DNA of 64,000 bases from Candidatus Saccharimonadales bacterium (GCA_041600755.1 JBFIJL010000003.1:36678-100677), one strand, 5' to 3'. Shown: positions 3,780 through 48,041, numbered from the stretch's first letter. Translations and numbers: made by a program. Notes: a model not told the origin generated them from the letters alone.

Positions 3780-3855
3780 GTCAACAGTATAGCCAAACTG
3801 CTTGTGTTTGTATAGAAGCTAATGTGCATACTTAATATCTATAAAAGGAGAACTC

Positions 3856-4203
3856 ATGGAAAAGCTTTCGAAGCCAAACATGCTTATTGCGTCTACTGCT
3901 ATCCTTGGTGGTCTATTATTGGCTGGCTGTAGTGAAACTCAAGCGACTTCAGACCCAAATGCGTTGAGAGTTTCCGATACAAAAGGAGATTTCACCGTTA
4001 CGCATGCTTACGGCGACGGAAAGCGAATCACTTCTATACCTAACGGTAGTTTTGGAGTCGCAAATAGCTACGAATTCTGTGATGCAAATGATCTTGTCGA
4101 GTATTGGAATGGTGGCCATGACGGAGGACCTGAACGCACCCAAGACCATCCTGCTTGCGATGATGGCGCACTAACACCTTCCGATTTTGAAATTGAAGGC
4201 TAG
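3856..4203 (+). CDS. small secreted lipoprotein, unknown function
   Basis: 115 aa. Signal peptide ends in the lipobox LLAG|C. Strong SD (AAAAGGAG) 6 nt upstream of the ATG. Confidence 0.6.
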   Translation: MEKLSKPNMLIASTAILGGLLLAGCSETQATSDPNALRVSDTKGDFTVTHAYGDGKRITSIPNGSFGVANSYEFCDANDLVEYWNGGHDGGPERTQDHPACDDGALTPSDFEIEG

Positions 4204-4205
4204 CA

Positions 4206-5083: not shown

Positions 5084-5086
5084 GAA

Positions 5087-6911: not shown

Positions 6912-6984
6912 TGTGCTTAAGTATAACAGGTCTCGATGCAAGTTAAACATTGACACTTGATAGTTTTTATGTTACAATTAGAAG

Positions 6985-7722
6985 ATGCCAGTGCGTTCAC
7001 ACAATCAAGTTTTTGAAGCCGCCCAAACTGATCTAGAAGAGATGCATGGTGGGTACCCAATACATGCATTTAATAAAAGTATTTATGGCCTGCTAGACAT
7101 TGTTTCTGATAATTACCTTGTAAAATCTTCTAGCGCTATGCCCAATGTCTTCGATGAGACGGCAACTCCCAAAACACAGCTTGGATCATATGTTCATGAT
7201 CTGATTGCTACACGTAAACTCACACATACACCAGAGGCCATTGATCTGCGCATCAGTGAGTTTTGCGACATAGCAGAACCCACAATGCTTACTGCATTAG
7301 ATCAGGCAGATACTCCCCGCTCAAGGCCACTTATTTTCGTACACGATACAGACGATCAACCAATCGCAGTTATAAAAAATAAAGGTGACGCAACCGCATT
7401 TGCATTGCAAGACAATAGAAGATTTGTACTTGGGGAGTCTGGTATCTATTCAATGACATTTGGACCACTAGATACAATCAAAACCAGCGTGCCACACATT
7501 AAACGCATAAAGCTGGGCAAAATCGAGTCACTAAAACCTGGACGAATCAGTGTATTCGCCGGCTCAGACGATGATCGTGCAAAGTATCGTCCAGAGAGAC
7601 TACATAAATGGACAGCGACAAAACGTGACAAAATACCAAAGCAAGTACTAAAAGACTTGCCTGCAGTATCTCACTATGAATTAGTACGTCGAGCAGAAGA
7701 GCTCAGTGAGTCTATCCGCTAG
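6985..7722 (+). CDS. hypothetical protein (245 aa)
   Basis: Single long ORF on the opposite strand inside the pentose-phosphate cluster. TACAAT 6 nt upstream of the ATG. No recognisable motif. Confidence 0.45.
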   Translation: MPVRSHNQVFEAAQTDLEEMHGGYPIHAFNKSIYGLLDIVSDNYLVKSSSAMPNVFDETATPKTQLGSYVHDLIATRKLTHTPEAIDLRISEFCDIAEPTMLTALDQADTPRSRPLIFVHDTDDQPIAVIKNKGDATAFALQDNRRFVLGESGIYSMTFGPLDTIKTSVPHIKRIKLGKIESLKPGRISVFAGSDDDRAKYRPERLHKWTATKRDKIPKQVLKDLPAVSHYELVRRAEELSESIR

Positions 7723-8348
7723 CTAACGGCGGAAATGATCTTGCTGTACTGAGCGTTGGGGTCTTTTGCTTTCTGAATAAACCCTCCGACGTTCAAGATA
7801 TCGATTCCCCCTGCAACAAGCTGCTTAGCATTTTCATCATTAATGCCTCCGTCCCAACCTAGCTCTAGGCTTGGTTTTAGCTTTTTCAGAGCGGCTGCTT
7901 TATCCAGCAAGCTTAAATCAACATGCCCTCCAAAATGACCAAGGTTTCCAGAAAATATTAATACATGATCGATAGCCTCAAGCGACGACGCAATGACGTC
8001 AATCTTTGTATCTTGAAGTAGGCAAACACCTACTTTAATCCCAGCACCATGCAACGCATCTGCAAAATCACCAAACGCACCTTGCGCCTCAGCGTGCACA
8101 ATCACTAAGGATGGCTTCAATCTTAAGATCACTGGAAGTGACAAGTCTGGACGCATGTACATAAGGTGCAAATCTATCTGCTTGTTCTCAGGCAGCCAAA
8201 TCTTATCCAGATCGACAGACTTGTTGGTCGTGAATAGTCCGTCCATGAAATCCAAGTGAATTCGCTCGGCAAAAGGTTCGAGTCGCTGCAACTGCTGTCG
8301 ATAAACGTGCAGGTCTTCGGCTGTGACCGTCGGGCACACAGTTGCCAT
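7719..8348 (-). CDS. rpe: ribulose-phosphate 3-epimerase-like protein (divergent)
   Basis: 209 aa. N-terminal CPTV...ERIHLDFMDGLFT resembles the Rpe (I)APSIL...HvDvMDGhFV metal-binding pattern. Adjacent to rpiB. Confidence 0.6.
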   Translation of the reverse strand: MATVCPTVTAEDLHVYRQQLQRLEPFAERIHLDFMDGLFTTNKSVDLDKIWLPENKQIDLHLMYMRPDLSLPVILRLKPSLVIVHAEAQGAFGDFADALHGAGIKVGVCLLQDTKIDVIASSLEAIDHVLIFSGNLGHFGGHVDLSLLDKAAALKKLKPSLELGWDGGINDENAKQLVAGGIDILNVGGFIQKAKDPNAQYSKIISAVS

Positions 8349-8349
8349 A

Positions 8350-8796
8350 CTAGGTTAGTTCATCGATCTGTTTAAGGCGTCGAATGAATCGCGGTGCAGC
8401 AGCAAATTTCGTGGAAAGCCATGTCTCGATGATGATATTTGACTCGTCCGCCTCGAGTAAGCTTGCTGGCAAGCATGCTACATTGCTATTGTCATCATTT
8501 CGGGAAGTCCTGGCGGAAGCACGATCATAAAGCAGTGCAGATCGAATGCCCTTAAATCGATTCGCCGCCATACACATCCCTTGTCCGCTTCCACAAATCA
8601 AAATACCGCGTGGATCGTTGTCGTCGCTAGTTAAAACATCAGTTACGACCTTATGCGCAAATACAGGGAAATCATCATCAGGATCTAACTGCTTATCACC
8701 CTCGTCGACTACATCATAGCCGGCACGCCGCAAGTAATCGATGAGTGAGTTTCGTAAACGAAATCCGTTATGATCCGCACCAACATAGATTTTCAT
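8350..8796 (-). CDS. rpiB: ribose-5-phosphate isomerase B
   Basis: 148 aa. N-terminal MKIYVGADHNGF and the CGSGQGM active-site Cys motif typical of RpiB/LacAB. Confidence 0.85.
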   Translation of the reverse strand: MKIYVGADHNGFRLRNSLIDYLRRAGYDVVDEGDKQLDPDDDFPVFAHKVVTDVLTSDDNDPRGILICGSGQGMCMAANRFKGIRSALLYDRASARTSRNDDNSNVACLPASLLEADESNIIIETWLSTKFAAAPRFIRRLKQIDELT

Positions 8797-8797
8797 A

Positions 8798-9814
8798 TTA
8801 GCTCTTTTTTAAACCCTTGGCCGTGTCGGCAACAACTTCTACGAGTCGGTTGCTGTAGCCCCATTCATTGTCATACCATGCAATGATTTTTACCATGTTT
8901 CCGGCAACAACTTTAGTAAGGCTTAGATCGACAGTCGAGGAGTGGCTGTCGCCTATAAAATCAGTCGATACCAGCGGCTCCTCTGTAATTGCCAAAATGC
9001 CTTGATAGTACGGATTTTTCACTGCGTCCTTAAATGCTTGATTCACTTCATCAACAGTTACGTCGCGCTTAAGTAAAAAGGTAAAATCGCTAAGACTAAC
9101 GATTGAGGTTGGTACGCGAACTGCCATGCCATCAAAAATACCCTTGAACTGCGGCAAAACTTCCTGTGTCGCAATCGCAGCACCAGAGCTAGTTGGAACT
9201 ATATTCTGAGCAGCAGCCCGTGCACGTCGCAGATCACTGTGTGGACCGTCCTGTAAGCTTTGATCGGCAGTATAGCTGTGAATAGTGGTCATCATGGCCT
9301 TTTCAACACCAAAAGCTGATTCCATAACTGCAGCTGGCGGAGTTATGCAGTTTGTGGTGCATGAGCCATTGCTCAAAATATCTTCGGCAGTTTCAATGGC
9401 ATCATCATTAACGCCAAGCACCACGGTAGTTGCGCCTTCGCCTTTTGCCGGAGCAGAGATCACCACTTTTTTGGCACCAGCGTCAATGTGCGCTCGAGCT
9501 TTTGCTGGGTCAACAAAGAATCCTGTAGATTCGATTACCACGTCAACGTCCAGCTCTTTCCATGGCAACGCGCTCGGGTCGCGTTCTGAGTGCACCTTAA
9601 TATGCTTACCATCTACAAATATCCCAGAATCATCGGCCGACACCTCATGCTGATAACGGCCATAGTTGCTGTCGTACTTTAATAAATGTGCGAGTGTTTT
9701 TGTGTCGGTTAAATCATTGATTGCGACAATTTCGATATCACTTCTCTCGAATGCGACTTTAAACGCGTTGCGTCCAATTCGTCCAAATCCGTTGATTGCA
9801 ATCTTTGCAGCCAT
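8798..9814 (-). CDS. gap: type I glyceraldehyde-3-phosphate dehydrogenase
   Basis: 338 aa. INGFGRIGR NAD-binding N-terminus, catalytic SCTTNC and C-terminal WYDNEWGYS. SD AAGGGG upstream. Confidence 0.95.
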   Translation of the reverse strand: MAAKIAINGFGRIGRNAFKVAFERSDIEIVAINDLTDTKTLAHLLKYDSNYGRYQHEVSADDSGIFVDGKHIKVHSERDPSALPWKELDVDVVIESTGFFVDPAKARAHIDAGAKKVVISAPAKGEGATTVVLGVNDDAIETAEDILSNGSCTTNCITPPAAVMESAFGVEKAMMTTIHSYTADQSLQDGPHSDLRRARAAAQNIVPTSSGAAIATQEVLPQFKGIFDGMAVRVPTSIVSLSDFTFLLKRDVTVDEVNQAFKDAVKNPYYQGILAITEEPLVSTDFIGDSHSSTVDLSLTKVVAGNMVKIIAWYDNEWGYSNRLVEVVADTAKGLKKS

Positions 9815-9887
9815 TTCCTACCCCTTAGTCTTATTAGCATTAGCAATACTGCCTCTACTATACGAGGTCACGCAAATTCACGCAATA

Positions 9888-10328
9888 TCAAGCGAACTGA
9901 TTATTATCGACAAGATACTGTAGACCATCAACCCACACTGGATGCTGATACACCGTCTTTAGAGACTCAAAACTCATCCATTGGTATGCGCTATGCTCGT
10001 GACTGAGCGTGACTTCGACGTCAGTAGCGACCTTGCCGACGAAAAGAAACCTAACTCGGCTTACCTGCTCCTTAAAATCTGTCTGGCTATAGGCAAGGTC
10101 AATTGAATCTTCTGCTATTGCAATACCGGTCTCTTCTAGGACTTCACGAATCATGCCCTCTAACGGTGACTCCTGATGATCGATAGTGCCACCTGGAAAG
10201 TCGAGTTCATTTGGGCGATGATCGTCAGTTGCCGCACGGGTCAAAACCAGTATTTCATTATTGTCGTTAAATAGCGCCGCTTTGCCAACGAGTGACGGAG
10301 GTTGAACTATGCCCACCGAGCAATACAT
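9888..10328 (-). CDS. NUDIX hydrolase
   Basis: Nudix box GGTIDHQESPLEGMIREVLEETGI. The ATG at 10328 overlaps the ppa 3' end by 22 nt, so the start is uncertain (GTG at 10316 is possible). Confidence 0.75.
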   Translation of the reverse strand: MYCSVGIVQPPSLVGKAALFNDNNEILVLTRAATDDHRPNELDFPGGTIDHQESPLEGMIREVLEETGIAIAEDSIDLAYSQTDFKEQVSRVRFLFVGKVATDVEVTLSHEHSAYQWMSFESLKTVYQHPVWVDGLQYLVDNNQFA

Positions 10329-18891: not shown

Positions 18892-20637
18892 CTACCAGCC
18901 GCCGCCACCTCCGCCGCCGCCACCTCCGCCAGAGAATCCACCCCCGCCAGAGAATCCTGAACTCCCAGAACTAGAGGGGGCAGAAAAGCTTGTACCAACT
19001 GCGGCAGCTGCACTACCCAAGTTATTGGCCAGCGCTACTGCAGTAAAGCCATTCGCGGTGCCATCAAGCCAACTGGGGCTCTTGTCGATATATATGTCTT
19101 TAAATTGTTTTGCCCATGACTTTTCAACTCCCAGCACAATCGCGTATGGTAATAGTTTTTCGAATAACTCAGCAGTCTTTTCTGGTCGCGCATAATCACG
19201 CTCAACACTTTGAAGTTTATCTAGCCTATCAGACTCGGCTGTACTCATGTACAACTTGAGGCCCATTATTTTCTCATACATCTCAACGCCAGAATGACTA
19301 CGACGCTTCATGAAAGGCAATACTGCAAAAATAGCAGCGATCCCCAAAAGTCGACCAATCATCCAACCCCAACCAAGCCCTGGTAGTATGAACAAACTCC
19401 CGATTAAAACGACCCATGCGACTATCAACCGACCGTACTTACCCTTTTCAGATTCTAAATAGCCATGTTTTTCAGTAAGTGCAGTTGTCAGGGCTTTTTG
19501 TTGACTTGTCATGAAATTATGCAGAGTGCTCGAATTCTTTTCGCCTATCTTGAACTTACTTCCAATTTTCATGTCAGAGAACAGTGCTTTTAGAAGCTTT
19601 GTTTCGTGATCTGAGAAGTCTTTGGTCTTAGTTTTAATTAATTCGAGCTCGAATTTATGCTTTTTGATAAATCCAAAATAGTTTTTTGTTTCTTGATAAA
19701 TTTTTATGTACCCGGCAACCGCAAGTCCAATAATTGAGCCTGTGATATCGCGAGAATTTAATTTATAGTCCGCAAGCAGCCCAACTTCTGCAGGTATTAA
19801 CCCTTTGGGGGGCGTGTACTCCGGGACAATAACTCCTCTGCCAGCGTAATCCTTGCCGTGTTGTCGCCAAATAGTCAATGCCCAGACAGCAGTCATCAAC
19901 CCAAGTCCAAGCCCAATTATTTGCAGAGCATTATCGCTAACCCAGTCCATTGTAGTTCTCGGTGCTACAACACCTTGATTAATAGCCAGTACATAGGTAA
20001 GCCCTTCACTTGCCTCAAGTCGACGATTTGTCCGAATCGTAATCTCTTCGCCGTCAACCGACACCGTACATGCAGACTCGCTACTCCCAAAACTCCCAGT
20101 AAAGCATTTTGGCTGCAAAGCGGTATACAAAGCCCCCTCGGGCACAACCACAGTAGACTTAACGCTCAAAAATGGCTGCTGCCACTCGTCGCCGTTAACG
20201 TCCCAATATAGCTCAATGTGGTCGTCCAGAAATTGCACCACATTCTGAACTTCGTATGAAATCCTATAACGTTGCGAACCAGTAACAGTCTCGCTTGCAT
20301 CGCCAATTCTAAGAACAATATTGCCATTCTGATGCGAATCGGTGTAGGGTTCACTGGATCCGTTCCTCTGCACAGACAAGACTTTAACTTTCAAGGATTG
20401 CCCTTTGTATGACTCAGGTATTGATCGTAAAATGCCGTGATTTTGCGCAGAGAAAGCTACATCTATCATTTCAGTGACCCTCATTCGACCACCACGCGTA
20501 TCATCAAACAGCTCGTACTTTGCATCGAACGAAGTAATAACAAAATCGTTCACTGATTGTGCTTTGGCATTTACACCAAGACCAAGCAACACGACGCAAC
20601 ACAGGATGGACGCCAATAGTCGTCCAAATAATTTCAT
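18892..20637 (-). CDS. DUF2207-like membrane protein with C-terminal poly-Gly tail
   Basis: Signal peptide, large ectodomain, several TM helices and a terminal SSGSSGFSGGGGFSGGGGGGGGGGGW tail, an architecture I associate with DUF2207. Start overlaps the pheT stop (TAATG). Confidence 0.6.
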   Translation of the reverse strand: MKLFGRLLASILCCVVLLGLGVNAKAQSVNDFVITSFDAKYELFDDTRGGRMRVTEMIDVAFSAQNHGILRSIPESYKGQSLKVKVLSVQRNGSSEPYTDSHQNGNIVLRIGDASETVTGSQRYRISYEVQNVVQFLDDHIELYWDVNGDEWQQPFLSVKSTVVVPEGALYTALQPKCFTGSFGSSESACTVSVDGEEITIRTNRRLEASEGLTYVLAINQGVVAPRTTMDWVSDNALQIIGLGLGLMTAVWALTIWRQHGKDYAGRGVIVPEYTPPKGLIPAEVGLLADYKLNSRDITGSIIGLAVAGYIKIYQETKNYFGFIKKHKFELELIKTKTKDFSDHETKLLKALFSDMKIGSKFKIGEKNSSTLHNFMTSQQKALTTALTEKHGYLESEKGKYGRLIVAWVVLIGSLFILPGLGWGWMIGRLLGIAAIFAVLPFMKRRSHSGVEMYEKIMGLKLYMSTAESDRLDKLQSVERDYARPEKTAELFEKLLPYAIVLGVEKSWAKQFKDIYIDKSPSWLDGTANGFTAVALANNLGSAAAAVGTSFSAPSSSGSSGFSGGGGFSGGGGGGGGGGGW

Positions 20638-29982: not shown

Positions 29983-30474
29983 ATGAACAAAAAATCACTT
30001 CTTATTGGACTGTTCATTCTGTTTGTAGGATCGGCATTTGGCTACACGATACTAAAATCAACTAACGAAACGTCTGATCTGGACCAAACCCCCAATTACT
30101 CTTCAGATGAACCAGAAAAATCTGCCAATATCAAAACTGAGCCAGACGACTCCTCGTCCACATCAACACCTGGCGTTTACGCAGATTACAGTGATGAATC
30201 ACTAGCCAGCGCAACCGGAGAAACAGTTTTATTTTTCCACGCACCATGGTGCTCACAGTGTCGCGCAATAGAAGCTGACATCAAACAGCAAGGTGTACCC
30301 GATGGCTATACAATCTTGAAAGTAGACTACGACAGCAACCAGGCTCTACGTCAAAAATACGAAGTTCGACTGCAAACGACGTTCGTAAAGCTCGATGCAA
30401 ACAATGATGCCAAGTCGCTTTTTGTAGCCTACGAAGAACCAACATTTGACGCCGTAAAACGAGACTACCTTTAG
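29983..30474 (+). CDS. membrane-anchored extracytoplasmic thioredoxin-like protein
   Basis: N-terminal anchor helix, low-complexity linker and a thioredoxin fold with WCSQC. SD GGAGG. Followed 8 nt later by ccdA. Confidence 0.75.
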   Translation: MNKKSLLIGLFILFVGSAFGYTILKSTNETSDLDQTPNYSSDEPEKSANIKTEPDDSSSTSTPGVYADYSDESLASATGETVLFFHAPWCSQCRAIEADIKQQGVPDGYTILKVDYDSNQALRQKYEVRLQTTFVKLDANNDAKSLFVAYEEPTFDAVKRDYL

Positions 30475-30482
30475 GTAACTAA

Positions 30483-31211
30483 ATGGAGCTTTTTGTCGTT
30501 TCATTTGTTGCTGGCATTCTCACTGTTGCAGCACCATGCATTCTCCCGCTTTTGCCAATAATCATTGGCGGCTCGCTTGCTAAAGGCGATAGAGAAAAGA
30601 ATGATTACACACGCCCAATATTAATCTCGTTAAGTCTTGGTGTGTCGGTCGTCGTGTCAACGCTTTTACTAAAAGTAAGCACTTCTTTGCTTGGCGTTCC
30701 TGAGCAAGTCTGGGCACTTATATCTGGACTGCTAATTATAGCGCTAGGAATTAGCCTAGTTCAGCCACTTTTTTGGGCAAAGTTGTCTAGCAAGCTGCAT
30801 CTAGAAACTAATTCGCTTAAATTTCTTTCAAAAAGCGATAAACATAATGGGCGAACTGGTGATATATTGACCGGTCTTGCATTAGGCCCAGTGTTTAATA
30901 GCTGTAGCCCTACGTATCTTCTAATCGTTGCCGCAGTGCTGCCGATTTCCTTCTGGCAAGGTTTTGCTTACTTGATTGCTTACGCTGCTGGGCTAGCAAG
31001 CACGCTACTTATGATTTCGTTCTTTGGCCAATCGATAATAAAAAGACTAAATTGGCTAAACAACCTCGCAACATTACAAAAAGTAATTGGCGTTTTATTC
31101 GTAATCGTTGGTGTGGGTATCATTTTTAGACTCGACAAGAATTTCCAAAGTTACGTACTTGAGCGAGGCTGGTATGATCCAATCGCAAGACTAGAGGACT
31201 CCCTCAAGTAA
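30483..31211 (+). CDS. ccdA: cytochrome c biogenesis protein CcdA / DsbD-family thiol-disulfide electron transporter
   Basis: 242 aa, 6 TM. Conserved Cys-Pro motifs (AAPCILPLLP and NSCSPTYL) as in CcdA. Confidence 0.8.
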   Translation: MELFVVSFVAGILTVAAPCILPLLPIIIGGSLAKGDREKNDYTRPILISLSLGVSVVVSTLLLKVSTSLLGVPEQVWALISGLLIIALGISLVQPLFWAKLSSKLHLETNSLKFLSKSDKHNGRTGDILTGLALGPVFNSCSPTYLLIVAAVLPISFWQGFAYLIAYAAGLASTLLMISFFGQSIIKRLNWLNNLATLQKVIGVLFVIVGVGIIFRLDKNFQSYVLERGWYDPIARLEDSLK

Positions 31212-37078: not shown

Positions 37079-37486
37079 ATGACCCACCAAGACATAAACG
37101 CATCAGATGACCAGTTTTCGGCACTGATTGGCAAGGCACTGGATGAGCTGCCTGAAGAGTTTGTTAGTAAACTTGATAACGTCGTTATTACCTATGAAGA
37201 CAATCCCTCACTTGACCAGCGCAAGAAACTGCGACTTCGTTGCGATCAGTCTCTATTTGGCCTTTACGAAGGAATTCCGCTCACCAAGCGCAATGCTGCA
37301 TATAATCTAGTACTGCCGGATAAAATTACCTTGTTTAAGACGCCCCTGCTCAGAACAAGTAGTGATGAGCAGTCCTTTTTCAAAAATATCAAACACACTC
37401 TATGGCACGAAATCGCACATTACTTTGGACTTGACCACGATCAAATACATGCAATCGAAGCACGCTGGACCAGCCCAAAACCCTAA
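37079..37486 (+). CDS. small zincin metallopeptidase-family protein (DUF1025-like)
   Basis: 135 aa. HEIAHYFG(L)D HExxH-type motif near the C-terminus. TGcTATACT box 8 nt upstream of the ATG. Confidence 0.7.
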   Translation: MTHQDINASDDQFSALIGKALDELPEEFVSKLDNVVITYEDNPSLDQRKKLRLRCDQSLFGLYEGIPLTKRNAAYNLVLPDKITLFKTPLLRTSSDEQSFFKNIKHTLWHEIAHYFGLDHDQIHAIEARWTSPKP

Positions 37487-39400: not shown

Positions 39401-40039
39401 TTAGTAGCTTGAGCCAAAAATTCCTTGCACGAAAACAAATGCAATGTACAGCCATATAGCTACAACCAGTAGACTGAACGCATAAGTGACGAGATTCACC
39501 ACTGAAAATACATAGTAGACTTCGTTAAATCCATTGATAACCAATGGCGCAAAAAACACAAATAAGACATAGACAGTCCCTGCAAGACAAGCATAAAGGA
39601 TAGTATTTTTTAGAGAGTAGATGATCATGTCTATCAATATCTGTTTTCTGGCATAGTGACGAGGGTGAAGATAGTGCGATGCGATGTCCACATCATTCTT
39701 TACTTCCTTTGCGACCCGAATAAATGAACTGGTAGTTGAATACACTAGCACCCCAATGAATCCCCAAAAAGCAAGCACTACAGCATTTGGGGCAAACGAA
39801 AATGCGTCTAAAAGAGATAACGCATTTTGAAAATAACCACCAACTATTTGAATAATCGTTTCTGAGCTATCGTCCACCCCGCCCCCCTTAATAAGGTCGT
39901 CAGTGAGCTTTCTTGCATTTCCTAAAATAGAAATGAATAGAGTCAGCGCGAACAACATTATGGTCTCAGTGAGAGTTGGCGTAAGTCGATCTTTTATTTC
40001 ATGTTTCATGTATTTTTTCCTAATTCTAGTGTAACGCAT
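39401..40039 (-). CDS. hypothetical polytopic membrane protein
   Basis: 212 aa, 4-5 TM helices. An alternative start at ATG 40009 is preceded by AGGA. No motif. Confidence 0.45.
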   Translation of the reverse strand: MRYTRIRKKYMKHEIKDRLTPTLTETIMLFALTLFISILGNARKLTDDLIKGGGVDDSSETIIQIVGGYFQNALSLLDAFSFAPNAVVLAFWGFIGVLVYSTTSSFIRVAKEVKNDVDIASHYLHPRHYARKQILIDMIIYSLKNTILYACLAGTVYVLFVFFAPLVINGFNEVYYVFSVVNLVTYAFSLLVVAIWLYIAFVFVQGIFGSSY

Positions 40040-40158: not shown

Positions 40159-42825
40159 ATGTCAGCAGGCGAATTTCGCACAGTTTACGAATATGGAAAA
40201 AAACTAGCAACTACGGTCTTACTAAGTTCAGCTTTGGTACTAACACCACTTACTGGGATCTTGGGCAATACATTTGGAGGATCTGCTGAGGCAGCAGTAA
40301 CCCACACATTGTTCTTTGACGATTTCGAGTCAGGTGATTTTTCAAACTGGGATAACAACGGTATCGATTGGAGCGTACTCGCTACAGACAGCGCATCAGC
40401 TGGAACTCATCATGCGCGTGGCCACGATGCCGACGACAACAATCTCTACCATTTCTTAATTAAAAACATCGATACTACTGGGTACGAAAACATCGAAGTG
40501 AGTTTTTCTTACAAGCGTTCAGGCTTAGAAGAAACTGACTTTGCTCGCTTATCCTACAACGCAGGAACGTCCTATATTCTTCATGATTTTTATGGAGAAA
40601 CAGGAACTGGGGACGATGACACGACCTGGCAATCGTTTTCTGGTGGACTTGGTGCTGTTGCCGACAACGCAGCAAACGTAAGCCTCACCATTTCAATAGA
40701 CGCGGCTGACAGCGAGTACTTCAGAGTTGATGATTTTAAGGTCACTGGCGAACTTATTGGCGCCACAACAGACACAACCGATCCAAGTTCATCAATAATA
40801 ACGCCAGAGCACGATGCTGTGGTTTTGACTGGTGCTTCAATCACGAATTTCACCTCCGTAGTTAGTGACGAAACGTCGGCAAACGAAGACCTCTCTGTTG
40901 TGCATTCATTCAATCCAGACCGCCCAGGATTGGTCACGCTATCAACCGTGATTTATAATCCTTCCGCAACAGGCATAAACTCCTCGCCTATGTCGGGAAC
41001 GACGCTAGCTTCTCTTACTGGCATGATCCCAGGCGACACCTTCTCGTGGAAGGTTACTGTACTTGACGAAGCTGGAAATGCTAGCGTTGACACAAAATAT
41101 GACCTGGTCTTTAGAGACCCTGTAGCCCGAAATATTCAAGACAACATCTATTTTGCCACCATCCAAGAAGCCATAGATGCAGCGACTACAGGAGCAGGAG
41201 AAACAATAGAGCTTTTGTCTGACGTTACGATTGACTCGCAAATCACTATAGATAAAGATATTCAGCTAGAGGGCAACGGCCACACAATACATGGGGCATT
41301 TACTAAATCAAGCAATAGCAACAATGCGATCATTGGAGTCATTGGCACGGACGGTGTAACCATACAGAACCTTGTGCTTGATGGCGTTTCAGGAGCCAGT
41401 CTGCACGGCATCAACTTTTACGAAGCGTCTCATTCAACCATTTCAAATATTACAGTTGCCGACAACGACAATGCGGGAATTATTGTTAATGGCTCGAACG
41501 TAGTTGCCGACAATCTAACAACAATCGGCAATGGCTGGTATGGAGTTGGCATCGATCAAGGCACAGGAGTAACAACACCTACAGTTTTTACAGCACAAAA
41601 TACGTCAAGTCATGATGAACTTGCGCACGTGAAAATTGACGACAAAACCAAAGATGTCCAATTTAACGATGACGACAATCAGTACGAACTTGTTTTCGAT
41701 GCGAATAATGTACAAGTCTACAATCTGATTACTCCTCAGCCAGAAGCTTGCATATCAACAAGCACCTTTGATGACTTCACTCTTGGAAGCGTGAATGGGC
41801 AGTCTGGCTGGAGCTCAACAGGTCCATATGATCAAGAAATTGTTGACAACATATACGGCTACACAGCGTTTGGGTGTAAGTCACTTCGAATTTCAAACGC
41901 GACAACTCAAGGTTCGTTTGGCGACCAAACATTCTCAGCATCTGTAGCAAATGAAGCTGGAGAAACTGATGCAGAAAACAATGGCCTTTCTGGCGGCGAG
42001 CGCAAAGATACATTTACTGCAACTTGGAGCTTTGCAAGCACAACTCCAACTGAATACCAACCAGGCCTACAAGTCACAGCGAGCCCAGATCGTGGTGATG
42101 GCGCACGCATGAGCTACATTCAGATGGTTGACCAAGCAGATGGACTTGCAGTTAACTTCTACGATTACCAGACAGGCGCATCGCCAAATAAGTTTGTACT
42201 CACGCAAATTGTTCATGGTCTAGACCGAAGCGTCCCTCATCAGATCATGGTTGTCATGAATTTCGTTGACGGACCCTCGAATGACGTCGTCAAAGTCTAC
42301 GTCGATGGCGTACTTATGCACACTGGAACAAGCTGGGAAGATTACTTCCGGGAGGTAGAAGAAACAGAGAGCCGTACCGTTGACTCAATATTATTCCGAG
42401 CTGCTGGCACCGCTGCACCTGTACTCGATGGCAAAGGCTTTTTGATCGACAACCTCTCTATCACAACTAGCAACATTGCCGACTCCACACCAACAACACC
42501 CGTGACGCCCACATCACCCGTCACAACACCCGTAGTTGCACAGACCTCTACCAGCGTATTGACCTCACTATTGAACGGAAATCAAGCTGGAAGCGGCGCA
42601 GTACTTGCTTCGACCACCAACAGCGAGCCCGCACAACCAAATGAAGCCGAAGAAAATGCAAGCGATGTACTAGCTACGAACACCGACGAAGATGCAAACA
42701 ATGACAGTGATTCGGAAGGCTGCTTTGAGATTTTTGGTATCTGCTGGTACTGGTGGATCGTTCCCCTTGTTGCGATTTTGCTGTATCTTTACTACCGCGC
42801 TAGAAAAGAAGCTGACGAAGAATAA
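40159..42825 (+). CDS. large secreted surface protein: two jelly-roll/LamG-like domains flanking a parallel beta-helix, with C-terminal Cys-motif TM anchor
   Basis: 888 aa. N-terminal signal/anchor. FFDDFESGDFSNW...FRVDDFKVTG and FDDFTLGSVNG...FLIDNLSITT lectin-like modules. Beta-helix-like repeats (IELLSDVTIDSQITIDKDIQLEGNGHTIHG). TP-rich linker. C-terminus reads CFEIFGICWYWWIVPLVAILLYLYYRARKEADEE. Confidence 0.6.
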   Translation: MSAGEFRTVYEYGKKLATTVLLSSALVLTPLTGILGNTFGGSAEAAVTHTLFFDDFESGDFSNWDNNGIDWSVLATDSASAGTHHARGHDADDNNLYHFLIKNIDTTGYENIEVSFSYKRSGLEETDFARLSYNAGTSYILHDFYGETGTGDDDTTWQSFSGGLGAVADNAANVSLTISIDAADSEYFRVDDFKVTGELIGATTDTTDPSSSIITPEHDAVVLTGASITNFTSVVSDETSANEDLSVVHSFNPDRPGLVTLSTVIYNPSATGINSSPMSGTTLASLTGMIPGDTFSWKVTVLDEAGNASVDTKYDLVFRDPVARNIQDNIYFATIQEAIDAATTGAGETIELLSDVTIDSQITIDKDIQLEGNGHTIHGAFTKSSNSNNAIIGVIGTDGVTIQNLVLDGVSGASLHGINFYEASHSTISNITVADNDNAGIIVNGSNVVADNLTTIGNGWYGVGIDQGTGVTTPTVFTAQNTSSHDELAHVKIDDKTKDVQFNDDDNQYELVFDANNVQVYNLITPQPEACISTSTFDDFTLGSVNGQSGWSSTGPYDQEIVDNIYGYTAFGCKSLRISNATTQGSFGDQTFSASVANEAGETDAENNGLSGGERKDTFTATWSFASTTPTEYQPGLQVTASPDRGDGARMSYIQMVDQADGLAVNFYDYQTGASPNKFVLTQIVHGLDRSVPHQIMVVMNFVDGPSNDVVKVYVDGVLMHTGTSWEDYFREVEETESRTVDSILFRAAGTAAPVLDGKGFLIDNLSITTSNIADSTPTTPVTPTSPVTTPVVAQTSTSVLTSLLNGNQAGSGAVLASTTNSEPAQPNEAEENASDVLATNTDEDANNDSDSEGCFEIFGICWYWWIVPLVAILLYLYYRARKEADEE

Positions 42826-42870
42826 ACCGCAACCGTTGCCAAAATTACCACTAAAATGGTAAAATAGTCC

Positions 42871-44718
42871 TTGAAATGGGAGCTTCACCGTGTCGTTGGC
42901 TATTGGCAAATAACCAGACAATCTGTCTGGTTATTTGCTTTATTTCTTGCTGGACTTTATGCTTTCAGCTTCACATCTATTGCTCTAGCCAATAGTGGAA
43001 CTGTTATGAACGAAAGAACAGGTGGAGTGTTTTCATCTATAGAAGAAGCCCTTCACGACAACAGTCTCCAATCTGGTGACATTATTATTGCTGGTCCTGG
43101 AACTTATGAACCACTGAATTACGACGGCTTACTGCCGAATAATATAACTATAAAAGCTAGTGCGGCTGGGTCTGCACATATTCCCTATATTTCACTCTCT
43201 GGGAGCACTTTTAACGGGTTGACTATTGAGGGATTTTCTTTTATGGGCACTTCCGCACTTCCCGGAGACGCCCAACTCTCTGTCCTTTCTTCTGGAAACT
43301 ATCAAGGACTTCAAGTAAAAAACAATATATTCGACGGCAAGCAAAGTGCCGTACGTGCCATAGCTACAACACAACCGATTGTCAATCTCACAATAGACAA
43401 CAACCAACTTTTTGGTTTTCGTGAAAGAACTAGCGAACCCTATCTATACTCTGTAATCATGGCTAGTAGTGCAAGCAGTACTACTAATAGATTCACAGCA
43501 CGCAATAATAGCCTCGCCGATTCTACGCTCCCTTCCTTTATTGAGTCTTTCGGCTACAGGAACGTGCTAATTGACGCAAACTCAGTCGACGCACAGGCAG
43601 GTCAAATATTAGTATGGTCTGGTCAGAGCGCAATACTTGAATCTGTCATCATTTCAAACAACACCATTAATACAGTTGGCGACTACGGCTTGGCAATATT
43701 TGGAAACACAGAAACTCTCAATTCAATTATTGGCAATCAGGTTAGTGGTCAGACAGTTTGTATAATTGCACCGCTCGTGCAAAAAATTAGTATCGAACGC
43801 AATGATTTGTCGAACTGTAAAAGTCTTGGAATTATGCTCTCATCTTCCCTACCTGGTTTCTTCGATACTGAGCTACTAGAGGCGTCAATCATGCACAACA
43901 CGATGACTAATTCGCCTGGCGGCATCAGTAGCAGCAACCAACTGTATATTTCTGGCTGCGTGAACACCTTTAATTCTGTCGATACTCATTTTCTCGGCAA
44001 CGTAGATTGCTTAGATACAGTTGGCCCGACGTTCACAAATGCCACTTTCAAAAACCAATACAACGAGCAAATTATAACTGCGAGTCCAGGTCAGCTTATT
44101 ACAATTGAGATCGAAATAGATGACCCATCAACTGTCATAAGTCCAACTGTCCAACTCCTGGCACCTGGCGGCATCGACATAACCTCCCAACTTACGCTAA
44201 CCGCGGAAGCAAACATATATAGTGCGCACTTCACCGCGCCGACTATTTCAAATCAATCAACAAGCGATAAAAGTGTCGTTACACTAGCATTTACGCTGAC
44301 CGCTACTGATTTTGTTGGAAATACTGGAACAAGCCAAGCTAGCCTACCGTTGTTCTCATTCATCGAGCCGCTAGACTCGAACCCTAACCAAACCGAAGGC
44401 CAAAACGCACGAGGCACATCCAGTGATGACACCGGACTACAGCAACCAACAAGCAGCAGAACGACATCTCCGATAGAAAACACCAACACTTCAACTAACT
44501 CAGAATCCAGTGAAGTACTTGCAGCACAAGATAGCCGCAACCCTGACTTTTCAGACTCAGACGTCAGAGGTTATAATTCAAGCACCGCCGATGATGAAAA
44601 AACCAGGTCATGCACGAATGCATTTGGAGTATGCAAAAACCTACTCCTCGGATTTGTTGGCCTTGCTTCACTTATAGGCCTTGTTGTTGCAGTGGCAAGA
44701 CGCGGATCAACAAACTAA
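42871..44718 (+). CDS. secreted parallel beta-helix repeat surface protein with C-terminal Cys-motif TM anchor
   Basis: 615 aa. Signal peptide ends ..SIALA|NSG. Repeated NNxhxG beta-helix turns (NNIFDG, NNQLFG, RNNSLAD, SNNTIN, IGNQVSG, ERNDLSN, MHNTMTN). C-terminus reads CTNAFGVCKNLLLGFVGLASLIGLVVAVARRGSTN. The only in-frame start upstream of the signal peptide is TTG 42871, with no SD, so the start is uncertain. Confidence 0.55.
   Translation: MKWELHRVVGYWQITRQSVWLFALFLAGLYAFSFTSIALANSGTVMNERTGGVFSSIEEALHDNSLQSGDIIIAGPGTYEPLNYDGLLPNNITIKASAAGSAHIPYISLSGSTFNGLTIEGFSFMGTSALPGDAQLSVLSSGNYQGLQVKNNIFDGKQSAVRAIATTQPIVNLTIDNNQLFGFRERTSEPYLYSVIMASSASSTTNRFTARNNSLADSTLPSFIESFGYRNVLIDANSVDAQAGQILVWSGQSAILESVIISNNTINTVGDYGLAIFGNTETLNSIIGNQVSGQTVCIIAPLVQKISIERNDLSNCKSLGIMLSSSLPGFFDTELLEASIMHNTMTNSPGGISSSNQLYISGCVNTFNSVDTHFLGNVDCLDTVGPTFTNATFKNQYNEQIITASPGQLITIEIEIDDPSTVISPTVQLLAPGGIDITSQLTLTAEANIYSAHFTAPTISNQSTSDKSVVTLAFTLTATDFVGNTGTSQASLPLFSFIEPLDSNPNQTEGQNARGTSSDDTGLQQPTSSRTTSPIENTNTSTNSESSEVLAAQDSRNPDFSDSDVRGYNSSTADDEKTRSCTNAFGVCKNLLLGFVGLASLIGLVVAVARRGSTN
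42906..42948 (+). terminator. perfect 15-bp hairpin plus U-rich tract (intrinsic-terminator-like)
   Basis: GCAAATAACCAGACA-ATC-TGTCTGGTTATTTGC (42906-42938) followed by TTTATTTCTT. Lies 80 nt after the stop of the 888-aa gene and inside the 5' codons of the next ORF. Confidence 0.6.
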
Positions 44719-45745
44719 TTACATTGGTCGAACTCTCGGGTACAATAAGCATGTGCACTATCAAGACGACAACAACCATATACACAATAAAGTCTGGACT
44801 GAATCAGAACTTCACACTCACTTGAGAGAGCTTTTTGCAGGCAATGACCTACTCCTGCCTGATGACGAGTTTTATGGCAACAAGCGGAATAAGGATGCCC
44901 TAGAACAGATGCTGCGCGTCATAAAAGGGCAATTAAAACTGCGAAAAACAGTGAATTTGCAGCTATCGCATAATGTTGCATTTCCTGGCCTCTGTACAAA
45001 GCACGAAAAAACCTACACCATAACTTTGCCGGCCCATCTGGTCGCCAAGCCGATGGTGGCGGCTGCGGCAATATCTCACCTAGCTACTCACATTTTATTA
45101 GAATCAAAAAGCATTACACATCGAGACAAAACACAAAATGAAACACTCATCACCTACGCCGTCGTCGAATCTGGTCTTGGAGTTGTGCTACTGAACGGAC
45201 TGAGGCCTGGTGGATGGAGATCACTTTTACCGCGGCATGATCATACTCAGCTTCTGGGGTCGTTGCAATATTCTGCCTACCTCCAACTACTTGAAACCGC
45301 TTTTCGGCTTCAGTCATTGAAAGTCCAAAAACAACTCCCGAAGCATATTGTATATTGGGAGCTTTCAGCGCTAAATATGAAGAAGCCAAAGAGGCGGCAG
45401 CTCCTTGTTTTTAAGCGTGCAGCACAGTTTCACGCGCGATCGTTAAGGGGTTTCGTGATCTTCATACTTCTTGGTACGGCGCTAGCAAGTTCTGCAATTG
45501 CTCTCGGGCTGCGAAAGCCAGCTTATCTCAGTCCATCAATTGCCGATAAGCGGCAGGCTGCCGACTCACTAAGACTTGCCTATGACGGCTGCATTGAGAG
45601 GTTGCGATTATTTGAAACTGCCATCCCTCAAGACGATCTTGCTGCTGCTCGATTAGCTTCGGCCGAAACGGTCAAATGCAAAAGCCTGCAGAATCGCTAC
45701 AATGCCGCCGCGCGCGAATACAATGCCGCGCTTCAAAACCTCTGA
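44681..45745 (+). CDS. hypothetical single-pass membrane protein
   Basis: Up to 354 aa. One TM (FVIFILLGTALASSAIALGL) and a helical C-terminal domain. The track start is TTG and overlaps the upstream gene. GTG 44753 is an alternative. The 3' end overlaps sodX convergently by 13 nt. Confidence 0.4.
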   Translation: MLLQWQDADQQTNYIGRTLGYNKHVHYQDDNNHIHNKVWTESELHTHLRELFAGNDLLLPDDEFYGNKRNKDALEQMLRVIKGQLKLRKTVNLQLSHNVAFPGLCTKHEKTYTITLPAHLVAKPMVAAAAISHLATHILLESKSITHRDKTQNETLITYAVVESGLGVVLLNGLRPGGWRSLLPRHDHTQLLGSLQYSAYLQLLETAFRLQSLKVQKQLPKHIVYWELSALNMKKPKRRQLLVFKRAAQFHARSLRGFVIFILLGTALASSAIALGLRKPAYLSPSIADKRQAADSLRLAYDGCIERLRLFETAIPQDDLAAARLASAETVKCKSLQNRYNAAAREYNAALQNL

Positions 45746-46077
45746 CGCACTCTAGGCCACAACAGCACCCCCTGCACTTGATTGATATTGATTGCGCCCC
45801 AGTTGCGGCTATCGGTGCTCTGCTCTTGATTGTCGCCCAGTACAAACAATGATTCTTTTTCCATATGATTAACTCTTTTTACTTTATCTAGATCGTCATG
45901 CTGAAACTGGATCACCGATCCAACTTGTGGCTTCACGAAACTACAAAAAACAACAATTTGACCCGAAAAAAGAGTTGGCTCCATACTTGAGCCAGACACT
46001 CTACGCACATAAAATGGCCAGCGCACCAAACTACGCCGCTTGGCCTTCCATGTTCTTTTTAATTGCTGAGTAGTCAT
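45733..46077 (-). CDS. sodX: S26-family peptidase, NiSOD maturation protease SodX-like
   Basis: Signal-peptidase motifs GSSMEPTL (Ser), VKRV (Lys) and GDNQEQSTDSRNWG. Immediately downstream of sodN. The start is uncertain: ATG 46077 or 46119, and both overlap the sodN 3' end. Confidence 0.7.
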   Translation of the reverse strand: MTTQQLKRTWKAKRRSLVRWPFYVRRVSGSSMEPTLFSGQIVVFCSFVKPQVGSVIQFQHDDLDKVKRVNHMEKESLFVLGDNQEQSTDSRNWGAININQVQGVLLWPRVRQRF

Positions 46078-46456
46078 ACCCGGGCTTTGTATTGGCAAAG
46101 ACTTCACCAACTTCATCAATCAAGTCAATAAGCTTCTGGGCGTCCTCAACCTTGTCGGTTTTTTTAGCTTCTCCAGCCGCCTTGGTTGCTCGCCAAATTA
46201 AATCATGAAGTCCTGGATGCGCCTCTAGGTGTTCTGGCTTAAAGTAGTCAGTCCATAATACCCATAGGTGTTCTTTAACTAACTCTGCGCGTTTTTCCTT
46301 GATAGACAGTGCTCGCTGCTTGAAAACTTCATCATTTGTTGCGTGATACTTCTTGACCGCATTGTAAACAGATTGGGCTTCAATCCGTGCCTGAGCCGGG
46401 TCATACACCCCGCACATCAAATCACAGTGAGCATATACAGCTTTAATCTTAAACAT
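46031..46456 (-). CDS. sodN: nickel-dependent superoxide dismutase precursor
   Basis: 141 aa. Propeptide MFKIKAVYA followed by the Ni-hook HCDLMCGVYDPAQARIEAQSV. Strong SD AAAGGAGGG. Confidence 0.9.
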   Translation of the reverse strand: MFKIKAVYAHCDLMCGVYDPAQARIEAQSVYNAVKKYHATNDEVFKQRALSIKEKRAELVKEHLWVLWTDYFKPEHLEAHPGLHDLIWRATKAAGEAKKTDKVEDAQKLIDLIDEVGEVFANTKPGYDYSAIKKNMEGQAA

Positions 46457-46520: not shown

Positions 46521-47357
46521 CTAACTCACCGTTTTAAGAATTTTTTGAATTTCCTTCCAGCTCATTGGAAAACAGGCTGCTATCTCGAAATCTCCAGTTG
46601 CATCTGCAAAAACCTTCATGGCAACAGATTCACCATCTATGTCAAACTTTCTTCCGTGCTCATCACGGCTCTTTTCAAAAAACTCACCCATCTTGAGGTA
46701 AATGTCTCGGTATTTTACCGACTCAATCAAGCCAGTCTTAAACTGTAACATCAGAGGTGTTTGTCTTAGTCTTGAAGTTTCTTCATCAACTGTTTCGCCG
46801 GCTCTTGCATACACCATACCAAACGCAAAGCGCAATATATTAATTCGACCAATTCTATCTTCGCTGCTCTGAGCGGTACCAACCGCAATCTCTGTTCTGG
46901 CCCCTGTGCTTAATGCCTCATTGGTCATTATTTCATCCAGCAAACTGTCTTTATCTATCAAAATAGCCATAAGCTTTTTAAATTTCCTTACATTAGTGTC
47001 TTGAATTTCGTTCTTCAGTAATCTAGCAGCTATAGCTGTGCCTATATATAGTTCTGCCAGCTCACTCCGGGTCAATCTATAGGCCTCGCCATATCGATGC
47101 ACTAGCTTATCGACAGTTGGCTGATCGTATAGAAGCGTAAATCTTGACCCTATACCGTCATCTTCAATTTTTGCAGGAAATTCACAGAACAAGCTTGGGT
47201 CTTCTACGCGCTCAATTTTTAAATTATTTCGAAACAATTCTGACTCGGAGGAGTTTGAAGTGATCTGTTCAGTGAGCCAATCAGCCTGCCTATTTGCAAT
47301 TATCTCCAAATCACTCAGTTCATTCGGACGAGGCTCGAACTCCATTGACCCAGTCAT
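46521..47357 (-). CDS. hypothetical protein (278 aa) translationally coupled to trmD
   Basis: ATG 47357 forms an ATGA overlap with the trmD stop. The track start at 47372 is also possible. No motif recognised, no TM. Confidence 0.5.
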   Translation of the reverse strand: MTGSMEFEPRPNELSDLEIIANRQADWLTEQITSNSSESELFRNNLKIERVEDPSLFCEFPAKIEDDGIGSRFTLLYDQPTVDKLVHRYGEAYRLTRSELAELYIGTAIAARLLKNEIQDTNVRKFKKLMAILIDKDSLLDEIMTNEALSTGARTEIAVGTAQSSEDRIGRINILRFAFGMVYARAGETVDEETSRLRQTPLMLQFKTGLIESVKYRDIYLKMGEFFEKSRDEHGRKFDIDGESVAMKVFADATGDFEIAACFPMSWKEIQKILKTVS

Positions 47358-47992
47358 TGATTGCTTCTCCATTTTTCAATATTGGCATGGTGGCCGCTCA
47401 GCAGCACTTCCGGTACTGTTAAGTCCTGGAAGGTCTCAGGACGGGTGTACTGAGGAAATTCAATACTAACGTCATCTTGCTGGAAAGATTCAATTTCGAC
47501 CGACTGATCGCCCCCTAGTACGCCTGGGAGCAAGCGAACAACACTATCTACTAACAACATCGCCGGAATTTCACCGCCAGTAAGCACATACGGCCCTATG
47601 CAGTATTGCTCATCTATCCAATTGGTTACTCGTTCATCGTAGCCCTCATAACGTGGGCACAAGATAATAATTCCGTTGTTGTCGGCTGCAATTTGCTTAA
47701 CTTTCGACTGCTTGAGCATTTCTCCACGAGGCGTTGGCAGATATACCTTGGCGGTAGGATCTTGTTTTTTAGCGTGCTCGATTGCTGCGACCATTGGCTC
47801 TATCATCAACAACATTCCATCGCCACCACCGTAAGGAGTGTCGTCAACCATTCTGCGAGGGCCTAGTCCAAAAGTCCGTAAATCTATAGTTTCGTAACTA
47901 ACAACCCCCTGTTCGCTAGCCTTCCAGAGCATGCTCGACCCAAAAACTGGAGTGAACATCTCTGGAAACAGTGTAATAATTTGCACTTTCAT
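47354..47992 (-). CDS. trmD: tRNA (guanine37-N1)-methyltransferase
   Basis: MKVQIITLFPEMF start and the LTGGEIPAMLLVDSVVRLLPGVLG SPOUT knot motif. The track start at 48028 overlaps the divergent promoter. Confidence 0.9.
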   Translation of the reverse strand: MKVQIITLFPEMFTPVFGSSMLWKASEQGVVSYETIDLRTFGLGPRRMVDDTPYGGGDGMLLMIEPMVAAIEHAKKQDPTAKVYLPTPRGEMLKQSKVKQIAADNNGIIILCPRYEGYDERVTNWIDEQYCIGPYVLTGGEIPAMLLVDSVVRLLPGVLGGDQSVEIESFQQDDVSIEFPQYTRPETFQDLTVPEVLLSGHHANIEKWRSNQ

Positions 47993-48012
47993 CATAATTA
48001 TAGTACCACATA

Positions 48013-48041
48013 TTGACATAGTGTGCATTAGCTTCTATTAT
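48013..48041 (+). promoter_or_regulatory. candidate sigma70-type promoter of the lipoprotein gene
   Basis: TTGACA (48013-48018), 17-nt spacer, TATTAT (48036-48041). SD TAGGAG lies before the ATG at 48073. Confidence 0.45.

Follow-up and report, generated by a model that had tools for sequence, protein, structure and literature searches.

The stretch of DNA analysed here (hereafter the window) covers 64,000 nucleotides (nt) of a Candidatus Saccharimonadales bacterium (GCA_041600755.1, JBFIJL010000003.1:36678-100677), and the locus under study, at positions 40159–45745, comprises three consecutive open reading frames (ORFs), named P1, P2 and P3. Saccharibacteria live attached to host bacteria and, to our knowledge, little is known about the display of their large surface proteins. 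P1 and P2 both end in a short segment with two cysteines (the Cys box), a transmembrane (TM) helix and a basic tail, and this C-terminal tail proved to be a real, conserved and portable module, always C-terminal, that occurs on unrelated protein bodies in Saccharibacteria and in archaea. The features of the three ORFs are listed below (aa, amino acids; AF2, AlphaFold2; pLDDT, predicted local distance difference test; CBM, carbohydrate-binding module).

40159–42825, + strand: P1, ORF for an 888-aa secreted surface protein with a canonical Cys-box tail
40159–40293, + strand: predicted P1 signal peptide (aa 1–45; KK, hydrophobic core, AEA/A), read from the sequence
40300–40758, + strand: P1 jelly-roll or CBM-like beta-sandwich (aa ~48–200; AF2 strands, Foldseek)
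41116–41703, + strand: P1 right-handed beta-helix (aa ~320–515; AF2, Foldseek)
42481–42720, + strand: P1 stalk (aa ~775–854), low-complexity Thr/Ser/Pro then acidic, with VL[TA][ST] motifs, disordered in AF2
42721–42744, + strand: P1 Cys box CFEIFGIC (aa 855–862)
42745–42795, + strand: P1 aromatic collar and TM helix WYWWIVPLVAILLYLYY (aa 863–879; hydropathy)
42796–42825, + strand: P1 cytoplasmic tail RARKEADEE and stop codon
42871–44718, + strand: P2, ORF for a 615-aa secreted beta-helix protein with a degenerate Cys-box tail, in the same form as in the NCBI annotation
42871–42990, + strand: predicted P2 signal peptide (aa 1–40, ...SIALA/NSG), likewise read by eye, start codon uncertain
43003–43860, + strand: P2 right-handed beta-helix (aa ~45–330; AF2 pLDDT 75–95)
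44359–44610, + strand: P2 stalk (aa ~497–580), rich in Ser/Thr/Asn/Asp, with an EVLAAQ motif
44611–44634, + strand: P2 Cys box CTNAFGVC (aa 581–588), in which only the C-x3-FG-V-C core is retained
44635–44718, + strand: P2 TM helix KNLLLGFVGLASLIGLVVAVA, basic tail RRGSTN and stop codon (hydropathy)
44681–45745, + strand: P3, ORF for a 354-aa membrane protein, adjoining P2

The three ORFs were found at the positions and with the lengths reported in the first-pass annotation of this DNA, in which P1 and P2 were described as giant; for proteins of 888 and 615 aa the adjective is generous. Both N-termini are signal-peptide-like on reading (KK, a hydrophobic stretch and AEA/A in P1; a hydrophobic stretch and ALA/NS in P2), in agreement with the proposal that the two proteins are secreted. 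A strong Shine-Dalgarno sequence, AAGGAG, lies 7 nt ahead of the ATG start codon of P1. For P2, the 615-aa version, also adopted in the NCBI annotation (P0005), begins at a TTG codon with no obvious Shine-Dalgarno sequence, and a signal peptide is present in this version alone. At 42905–42939 (+ strand), 80 nt past the P1 stop codon and near the start of the 615-aa P2 reading frame, there is a perfect 16-bp hairpin with a run rich in T behind it; the hairpin could be the terminator of P1 or an attenuator, and it bears on the choice of P2 start between TTG at 42871 and ATG at 43006.

The folds of the P1 and P2 bodies were modelled with AF2 from shallow alignments (6–9 sequences) and compared using Foldseek, which returned the beta-helix matches with a probability of ~1.0. 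In P1, an N-terminal helix (residues 3–27) precedes beta strands with pLDDT values of 60–80 that form a moderately confident beta-sandwich at residues ~100–200, and this N-terminal module matched CBM61, CBM16, CBM22, MAM and a hyaluronan-binding module. The beta-helix of P1 was modelled with a pLDDT of ~90 (confident at residues ~320–500) and matched GH87, GH28, pectate lyase and tailspike proteins. The P2 model also begins with a helix (residues 2–34), and its beta-helix matched PL6 alginate lyases, chondroitinase B, tailspikes, GH28 and the PfbA adhesin. The jelly-roll and beta-helix architecture suggested earlier was therefore borne out at the fold level. At the sequence level, the match of P1 to Pfam Beta_helix (PF13229; 17.6 bits, E=0.003) and that of P2 to Pfam NosD (PF05048; 16.9 bits, E=0.0044) stayed below the respective gathering cut-offs of 25.9 and 23.6 bits, and a sequence search of the PDB with P1 and P2 gave noise or nothing. 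The bodies of P1 and P2 do differ, as had been noted, with no detectable similarity to each other by BLASTP (E=0.22).

At their C-termini, P1 reads ...SEG-CFEIFGIC-WYWWIVPLVAILLYLYY-RARKEADEE and P2 reads ...TRS-CTNAFGVC-KNLLLGFVGLASLIGLVVAVA-RRGSTN, so that the shared succession of Cys box, TM helix and basic tail on which the first-pass annotation had drawn attention was confirmed by pattern search and hydropathy. The pattern C...FG[IVLM]C has exactly two matches in the six-frame translation of the window (42721–42744 and 44611–44634), compared with ~0.09 expected from the six-frame composition, and both are close to ORF stops, at distances of 26 and 27 residues. Each tail is preceded by a low-complexity stalk about 80 residues long, and residues 864–887 of P1 and 589–611 of P2 form a helix in the AF2 models.

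The occurrence of the tail beyond the window was examined using a profile built from the two window tails only and searched against 1.84 billion representative proteins. At E<=1e-3 this gave 13 matches, consisting of the two queries, one repeat artefact and 10 other proteins, all 10 of which were matched at their last ~35 residues; a two-sequence profile is weak, so the family size is underestimated. A scan of metagenomes for FGICWYW gave 132 pattern matches and 12 confirmed loci, and in 12/12 of these the first Cys is located 4 residues before the F, the box lies 22–38 residues from the stop and is followed by a hydrophobic stretch and then by basic residues. The same pattern in viral contigs gave 17 matches, none of which was confirmed. 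In all, another 21 distinct proteins (12 Saccharibacteria-like and 9 from metagenome contigs) were found to bear the module at their extreme C-terminus, in Saccharibacteria and archaea and on bodies that are unrelated or mosaic, P1 and P2 matching P0012 and P0013, respectively, in parts only. A word-index search with tails of 40–50 residues missed even the query proteins, which exhaustive HMMER searching recovered, and a word-index search with full-length P1 returned only itself and two beta-helix proteins without the tail; short C-terminal domains appear to be invisible to this type of search.

Both box cysteines are invariant in the 23 distinct tails (23/23), all of which end 22–38 residues past the second Cys, and the TM stretch that follows C-x3-[FL]-G-x-C consists of 17–25 hydrophobic residues and then R/K. 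The C-x3-F-G-[IV]-C box first described for P1 and P2 is present but forms only part of a longer signature, C-x3-[FL]-G-[IVL]-C-W-Y-W-[WYF], followed by the TM helix and basic residues, of which P1 is a canonical and P2 a degenerate example. The Saccharibacteria-type consensus is C-[FYL]-x-[IVLM]-[FL]-G-[IVL]-C-W-Y-W-[WYF]-x-I-P-(TM)-Y-x-Y-R-x-R-acidic; tails of this type conserve W, Y, W and the pair I-P, and the basic-then-acidic cytoplasmic end recurs among them. The confirmed metagenome loci divided into 3/12 of this Saccharibacteria-like type and 9/12 of a different flavour, in which Leu/Ile comes after WYWW, Pro is missing, the linker is rich in Pro/Glu and additional cysteines are sometimes present (e.g. 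CCLLFCAQLFGIC).

Loci L083–L087 and L097–L099 were assigned to Saccharibacteria by homology and synteny with the window. Judging by their gene content, several of the nine metagenome contigs are demonstrably archaeal: L094 carries an archaeal 23S rRNA (1608 bits) and a Hjc resolvase gene, L096 a tRNA-intron endonuclease gene and L090 tRNAs of intron-containing length, and L091, L092, L093 and L095 share genes with L090. The archaeal carriers differ from the bacterial ones in Pfam content. When a tail profile was run against a 1.6-Mb six-frame translation, members scored 37–71 bits and noise did not exceed 14 bits; against the same noise level, profiles built from one domain of life found the tails of the other at 22–36 bits. 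Specifically, an archaea-only profile scored the Saccharibacteria tails at 25–34 bits, and the reverse search also worked.

Some of the archaeal loci showed further features. In L090, genes at 2928–5762, 5765–6682 and 6710–10093 include those of two paralogous giant glycoprotein-like proteins, one ending in a Cys-box tail and the other in VPGIDLLPVFLLLAVAAAIVYGYRAMKKG; both have lipobox-like N-termini (LGFFIGC, MLFMLGC) and 3.4–3.6 N-x-S/T sequons per 100 residues. A UbiA-family prenyltransferase gene lies between these paralogues and is also found upstream of the L093 carrier gene; UbiA was noted but not adopted, since L090 and L093 are orthologous and count as a single observation. In L095, the Cys-box tail belongs to a stop-to-stop remnant of 62 codons (3577–3765) immediately after a tRNA-Asp gene (3419–3491), and this remnant looks like a truncated carrier gene; the large protein encoded ahead of it has a TM anchor of its own, of a different kind, at its end. 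In L096, a gene for a "putative phage metallopeptidase" (1058–1453; PF18894, 7e-20) is directly downstream of the archaeal-type carrier gene.

Within the window, the two tails differ in their fit to the family. Using a profile built without the window tails, the P1 tail scored 61–67 bits and the P2 tail ~8 bits. P2 keeps C-x3-F-G-V-C, the distance to the C-terminus and the EVLAAQ stalk motif (cf. [PQ]EVLQS in the family), whereas neither the WYWW collar nor the I-P pair survives in it. The body of P2 is homologous to an internal module of P0013 (E 7e-45), and as P0013 itself bears a canonical tail, the P2 tail is best read as a degenerate copy of the module in which the Cys box is the part still under constraint. 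P1 is homologous to P0012 over its N-terminal 550 aa (E 6e-46) and, separately, over the tail (E 4e-15), with nothing shared in between. The stalks of the Saccharibacteria carriers (last ~110 residues of P0009–P0018, P1 at ~42490–42720 and P2 at ~44400–44610) carry recurring short motifs, with "(P)[QE]VLQS" ~20–25 residues before the first Cys (DVLATN in P1, EVLAAQ in P2) and "GG[IT]GGEPF[VLI]AQ" and "VAG.NTG" further upstream.

Catalogue searches were carried out against NCBIfam 20.0 (June 2026), which includes the MYXO-, JDVT-, Synerg-, CGP-, PGF-, PEF-, PEP-, GlyGly- and Heimdall-CTERM and LPXTG models, and against Pfam-A 2025. Twelve tails gave nothing above cut-off in either catalogue, and the P1 and P2 tails gave no NCBIfam match at E<=10. 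The 10 further tails returned only noise from NCBIfam, such as JDVT-CTERM at 12.8 bits (cut-off 27) on a different tail, and the PGF-, PEF- and Heimdall-CTERM models reached at best 13–14 bits, against cut-offs of 23–24, on one variant tail only. Three archaeal tails scored ~13 bits with the TafF fimbrial protein model (cut-off 420); this was rejected as TM-level noise, TafF being a haloarchaeal fimbrial anchor with TM helices and no motif relation to the Cys-box tails. Full-text literature searches, made with the motif strings and on sorting signals of Saccharibacteria, turned up nothing of relevance, and the recorded source names of the carrier proteins are "hypothetical protein" or, mostly, none. 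The module is absent from Pfam and NCBIfam and undescribed in searchable papers, in line with the initial impression that the box is not one of the known sorting signals.

The cysteines of the carriers follow a particular pattern. In the Saccharibacteria carriers their number is even and they are arranged in close pairs, as in P1 (531/573 and 855/862), P2 (297/316, 363/380 and 581/588) and P0009 (six pairs), a pattern that reads as a signature of extracytoplasmic disulfides. P0020 has only two cysteines in 1431 residues, both in the box. This even, paired distribution, together with the case of P0020, shows that selection acts on the two box cysteines jointly.

The genomic setting of the locus was assessed through TrmD (47354–48028), which is 65–74% identical to TrmD from Saccharimonadales and Saccharibacteria metagenome-assembled genomes. 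In the ~20 syntenic Saccharibacteria loci found in this way, homologues of P1, P2 and P3 and the motif were all absent, and the P1–P2 locus is therefore a variable island within a conserved housekeeping region. P3 had been described as a single-pass protein in a system-like locus. It has one clear TM segment (~residues 254–276) together with a second, weak hydrophobic stretch (hydropathy), and it showed no Pfam or NCBIfam match and no homologue beside any other carrier gene in the related loci, so that it is not counted as part of a system; there is no evidence from these comparisons for a link with the tail module, to which P3 is adjacent. Directly downstream of P3, on the opposite strand, a Sod_Ni (nickel superoxide dismutase) gene is paired with a small S24/S26 peptidase gene (45733–46119 and 46031–46456, both on the − strand), the peptidase being the presumed Sod_Ni maturation protease. 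Elsewhere in the window, a DUF2207 membrane protein (18892–20637, − strand) ends in a long Gly/Ser run (...GGGGFSGGGGGGGGGGGW), and its gene adjoins ABC exporter and RND/MMPL transporter genes.

In five related loci (L083, L084, L085, L097 and L098), a gene for a Zincin_1 small metallopeptidase lies beside the carrier gene, and a gene pair for a DsbA-like Thioredoxin_4 protein and a membrane protein is found directly after the carrier gene or one gene off. The membrane protein (~190–200 aa) has multiple TM segments and an invariant GGCVACG motif and matches nothing in Pfam or NCBIfam; by analogy with DsbB or VKOR it could be an undescribed partner that re-oxidizes DsbA. The window has its own Zincin_1 gene, and positions of these genes are as follows.

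37079–37486, + strand (window): Zincin_1 small metallopeptidase gene (Pfam PF06262), a conserved neighbour of carrier genes, with homologues beside or near them in L083, L084, L086, L097 and L098
L083, 14109–15421: DsbA-like Thioredoxin_4 and GGCVACG protein gene pair
L084, 7021–8331: the same gene pair
L085, 1759–3056: the same gene pair
L097, 5687–6991: the same gene pair
L098, 12176–13450: the same gene pair

The window also encodes a membrane-anchored thioredoxin (29983–30474, + strand; Pfam Thioredoxin, 4.7e-9) followed by CcdA/DsbD_TM (30483–31211, + strand; 1.3e-8), an extracytoplasmic thiol-redox pair located 9 kb upstream of P1. No gene for a sortase, a CPBP/Rce1-like protease (PF02517), a rhomboid protease or an exosortase/archaeosortase was found in the 64-kb window or within 10 kb of 13 other carriers, and PF02517 had no match among the neighbours in the window, in L083, L084 and L097–L099 or in the archaeal loci scanned. 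The only gene families common to the bacterial and archaeal neighbourhoods were the carriers themselves and purH. As candidate processing enzymes, P3, a divergent 5-TM protein (39401–40039), Zincin_1 and a conserved 7TM-like protein of the related loci were considered and rejected, having no relevant protease-family match; P3 and the 5-TM protein also had no homologues near other carriers. The earlier proposal of a dedicated sorting or anchoring signal stands as far as a conserved, portable C-terminal module is concerned; neither a sign of processing nor, in the window and the 13 neighbourhoods, a sorting-enzyme gene was found. Of three outcomes that would have counted against that proposal, two did not arise, since the box does occur on further proteins and no CTERM family in the catalogues fits; the third, a C-terminus left intact as a simple TM anchor, coincides with the reading preferred below.

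Based on these data, it is tentatively proposed, with a confidence just short of even, that P1 and P2 are Sec-exported surface proteins of a beta-helix and carbohydrate-binding type, anchored in the cytoplasmic membrane through a portable, uncatalogued module at the C-terminus, which is retained and looped by a disulfide. From outside to inside, the module would consist of the low-complexity stalk, the Cys box, the W-Y-W-W collar opening the single TM helix and a short basic (then acidic) cytoplasmic end. The two invariant cysteines would form a disulfide on the outer face of the membrane, closing an 8-residue loop that turns at the invariant Gly; the bond would be made by a DsbA-type oxidase, and the module would stay on the mature protein as a type-I anchor. 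We infer the topology, the disulfide and the retention of the tail rather than its cleavage. A retained anchor is slightly favoured over a cleaved signal because the cysteines are paired, a DsbA-like gene is a neighbour of the carrier gene in five loci, the cytoplasmic end is conserved (Y-x-Y-R-x-R and then acidic residues in the Saccharibacteria type) and no adjacent protease was found. In favour of the disulfide, the AF2 helix begins just after the second Cys in P1 and P2, and the window itself encodes the thioredoxin and CcdA pair.

Several observations weigh against retention of a disulfide-looped anchor. DsbA neighbours were seen in five loci that belong to a single clade and are positional orthologues (L083 being also syntenic with the window), so that the DsbA association counts roughly as one evolutionary observation, and the DsbA pair is absent near the carriers in the window and in L099. 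The confidence of AF2 in the tails is low. The conservation across both domains, with FGICWYW identical, would exceed what a plain anchor needs and, by analogy, resembles the pattern seen when a membrane-embedded enzyme recognizes the tail; here it is worth noting that the presence of FGICWYW in the archaeal set follows from the construction of the search, whereas the placing of the first Cys, the location at the C-terminus and the succession of TM helix and basic residues are independent of it. Furthermore, the hallmarks of cleaved Cys-containing CTERM signals, namely a signature abutting the TM helix, conserved in-helix residues and a Ser/Thr- or Pro/Glu-rich linker (Haft 2023, 10.1101/2023.06.07.544157), are all displayed by the module tails.

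The strongest alternative, possible though somewhat doubtful, is a true sorting signal of the MYXO-, JDVT- or CGP-CTERM kind, in which an intramembrane enzyme encoded elsewhere would modify the box Cys (e.g. with a lipid) and cleave off the TM helix, leaving the protein lipid-anchored or wall-attached. The tripartite layout is perfect in this respect and always at the extreme C-terminus, with the Cys signature abutting the helix, WYWW within the helix (plus I-P in Saccharibacteria) and a basic cluster, and it is carried by unrelated bodies in two domains of life behind a low-complexity Ser/Thr/acidic or Pro/Glu linker, as in archaeosortase and CGP-CTERM substrates. The L090 paralogues with their different C-terminal tails suggest interchangeable anchoring signals, and the low copy number is no objection, since JDVT-CTERM is found only once in a genome; two cysteines are frequent in MYXO-CTERM. 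However, low-copy signals such as JDVT-CTERM usually have their processing enzyme next door (Haft 2023, 10.1101/2023.06.07.544157), and no gene for a CPBP protease, sortase, rhomboid, exosortase or archaeosortase was detected in the window or within 10 kb of the 13 carriers. The restriction of shared bacterial and archaeal neighbours to the carriers and purH and the lack of a match to any catalogued CTERM model also argue against it, and a disulfide accounts better for the paired cysteines and the DsbA neighbour than a free thiol carrying a lipid would. The more specific version, in which the tail would be the recognition signal of a new sorting system common to Saccharibacteria (candidate phyla radiation, CPR) and archaea, with a membrane enzyme modifying the box Cys and removing the helix, is considered rather unlikely.

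An improbable alternative is a retained anchor in which the cysteines form interchain disulfides, stapling beta-helix trimers or oligomers together, or bind a metal together with the aromatic collar. Beta-helix tailspike-like proteins, to which P1 and P2 were matched by fold, are often trimers; if the box continued the helix, the i/i+7 spacing would put both cysteines on the same side of it; tails with 4 Cys occur among the archaeal ones (CCLLFCAQLFGIC); and copper- or cation-ATPase genes lie near the carriers of L098, L092, L093 and L095. Against this, AF2 does not extend the helix over the box, the invariant Gly of the box favours a turn, and the ATPase neighbours reflect lineage-specific synteny. 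Finally, a similarity of the P1 and P2 tails arising by chance or by recent tandem paralogy, to which the ~8-bit score of the P2 tail and the ~20 syntenic Saccharibacteria loci without both genes and the motif might point, is refuted by the wider family (protein profile search, metagenome scan and cross-domain profiles) and has next to no probability, given ~0.09 expected matches against 2 seen at matching distances from the stops, the unrelated P1 and P2 bodies, the recurrence of the P1 tail on 21 other proteins in two domains of life and the canonical tail of the P2 body homologue P0013.

As a compact and conserved element, the module provides a handle for listing surface proteins in Saccharibacteria and some archaea, a target for Cys-to-Ser mutagenesis and C-terminal proteomics, and a query for phylogenetic profiling of the type by which the myxosortases were found. 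If processing does occur, the tail is the mark of a sorting enzyme still to be found; with retention, it would be an unusual juxtamembrane anchor, locked by a disulfide and conserved in bacteria and archaea alike. A new sorting system would imply either a sorting-enzyme family not described so far or a novel role for a known one, and its presence in two domains would point to horizontal exchange of surface-display machinery.

In comparison with known systems, the likeness of P1 and P2 to beta-helix CAZymes and adhesins (PL6 alginate lyase/chondroitinase B, GH87, GH28, phage tailspikes and PfbA) and to CBM jelly rolls lies in their predicted folds, with sequence matches below the curated cut-offs, and these families are uninformative on the tail. 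With LPXTG/sortase substrates, P1 and P2 share the large adhesin-like format and the C-terminal TM helix with a basic tail; they differ in that no spacer separates the module signature from the helix and that no sortase gene is present in the window, and an LPXTG-like pattern search of the last 150 residues of P1 and P2 retrieved only "VAQTS" in P1, ~60 residues before the Cys box and ~70 before the TM helix. The archaeal PGF-CTERM/archaeosortase A, PEF-, Heimdall- and VPXXXP-CTERM systems resemble the module in having a signature, TM helix and basic tail on surface glycoprotein-like proteins, and one L090 paralogue has a PG-containing tail instead of the Cys box; unlike the PGF/PEF group, the module shows no PGF or PEF motif, its invariant residues are Cys and its scores with these models are only sub-threshold. 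The closest likeness in layout is to MYXO-CTERM (TIGR03901), JDVT-CTERM (NF033191), Synerg-CTERM and CGP-CTERM (TIGR04288), which are processed by CPBP/Rce1-like myxosortases (Haft 2023, bioRxiv, 10.1101/2023.06.07.544157; mBio 2025, PMC11980579). In contrast to these, the module has no hidden Markov model match, no CPBP protease in the neighbourhoods examined and a distribution over Saccharibacteria and archaea. As in these signals, the module is located at the extreme C-terminus, with an invariant Cys signature abutting a TM helix and then basic residues, follows a low-complexity linker, is borne by otherwise unrelated surface proteins and is apparently of low copy, as is JDVT-CTERM; what sets it apart from them is its two invariant cysteines with six residues between them, its invariant Gly and its invariant W-Y-W-W collar.

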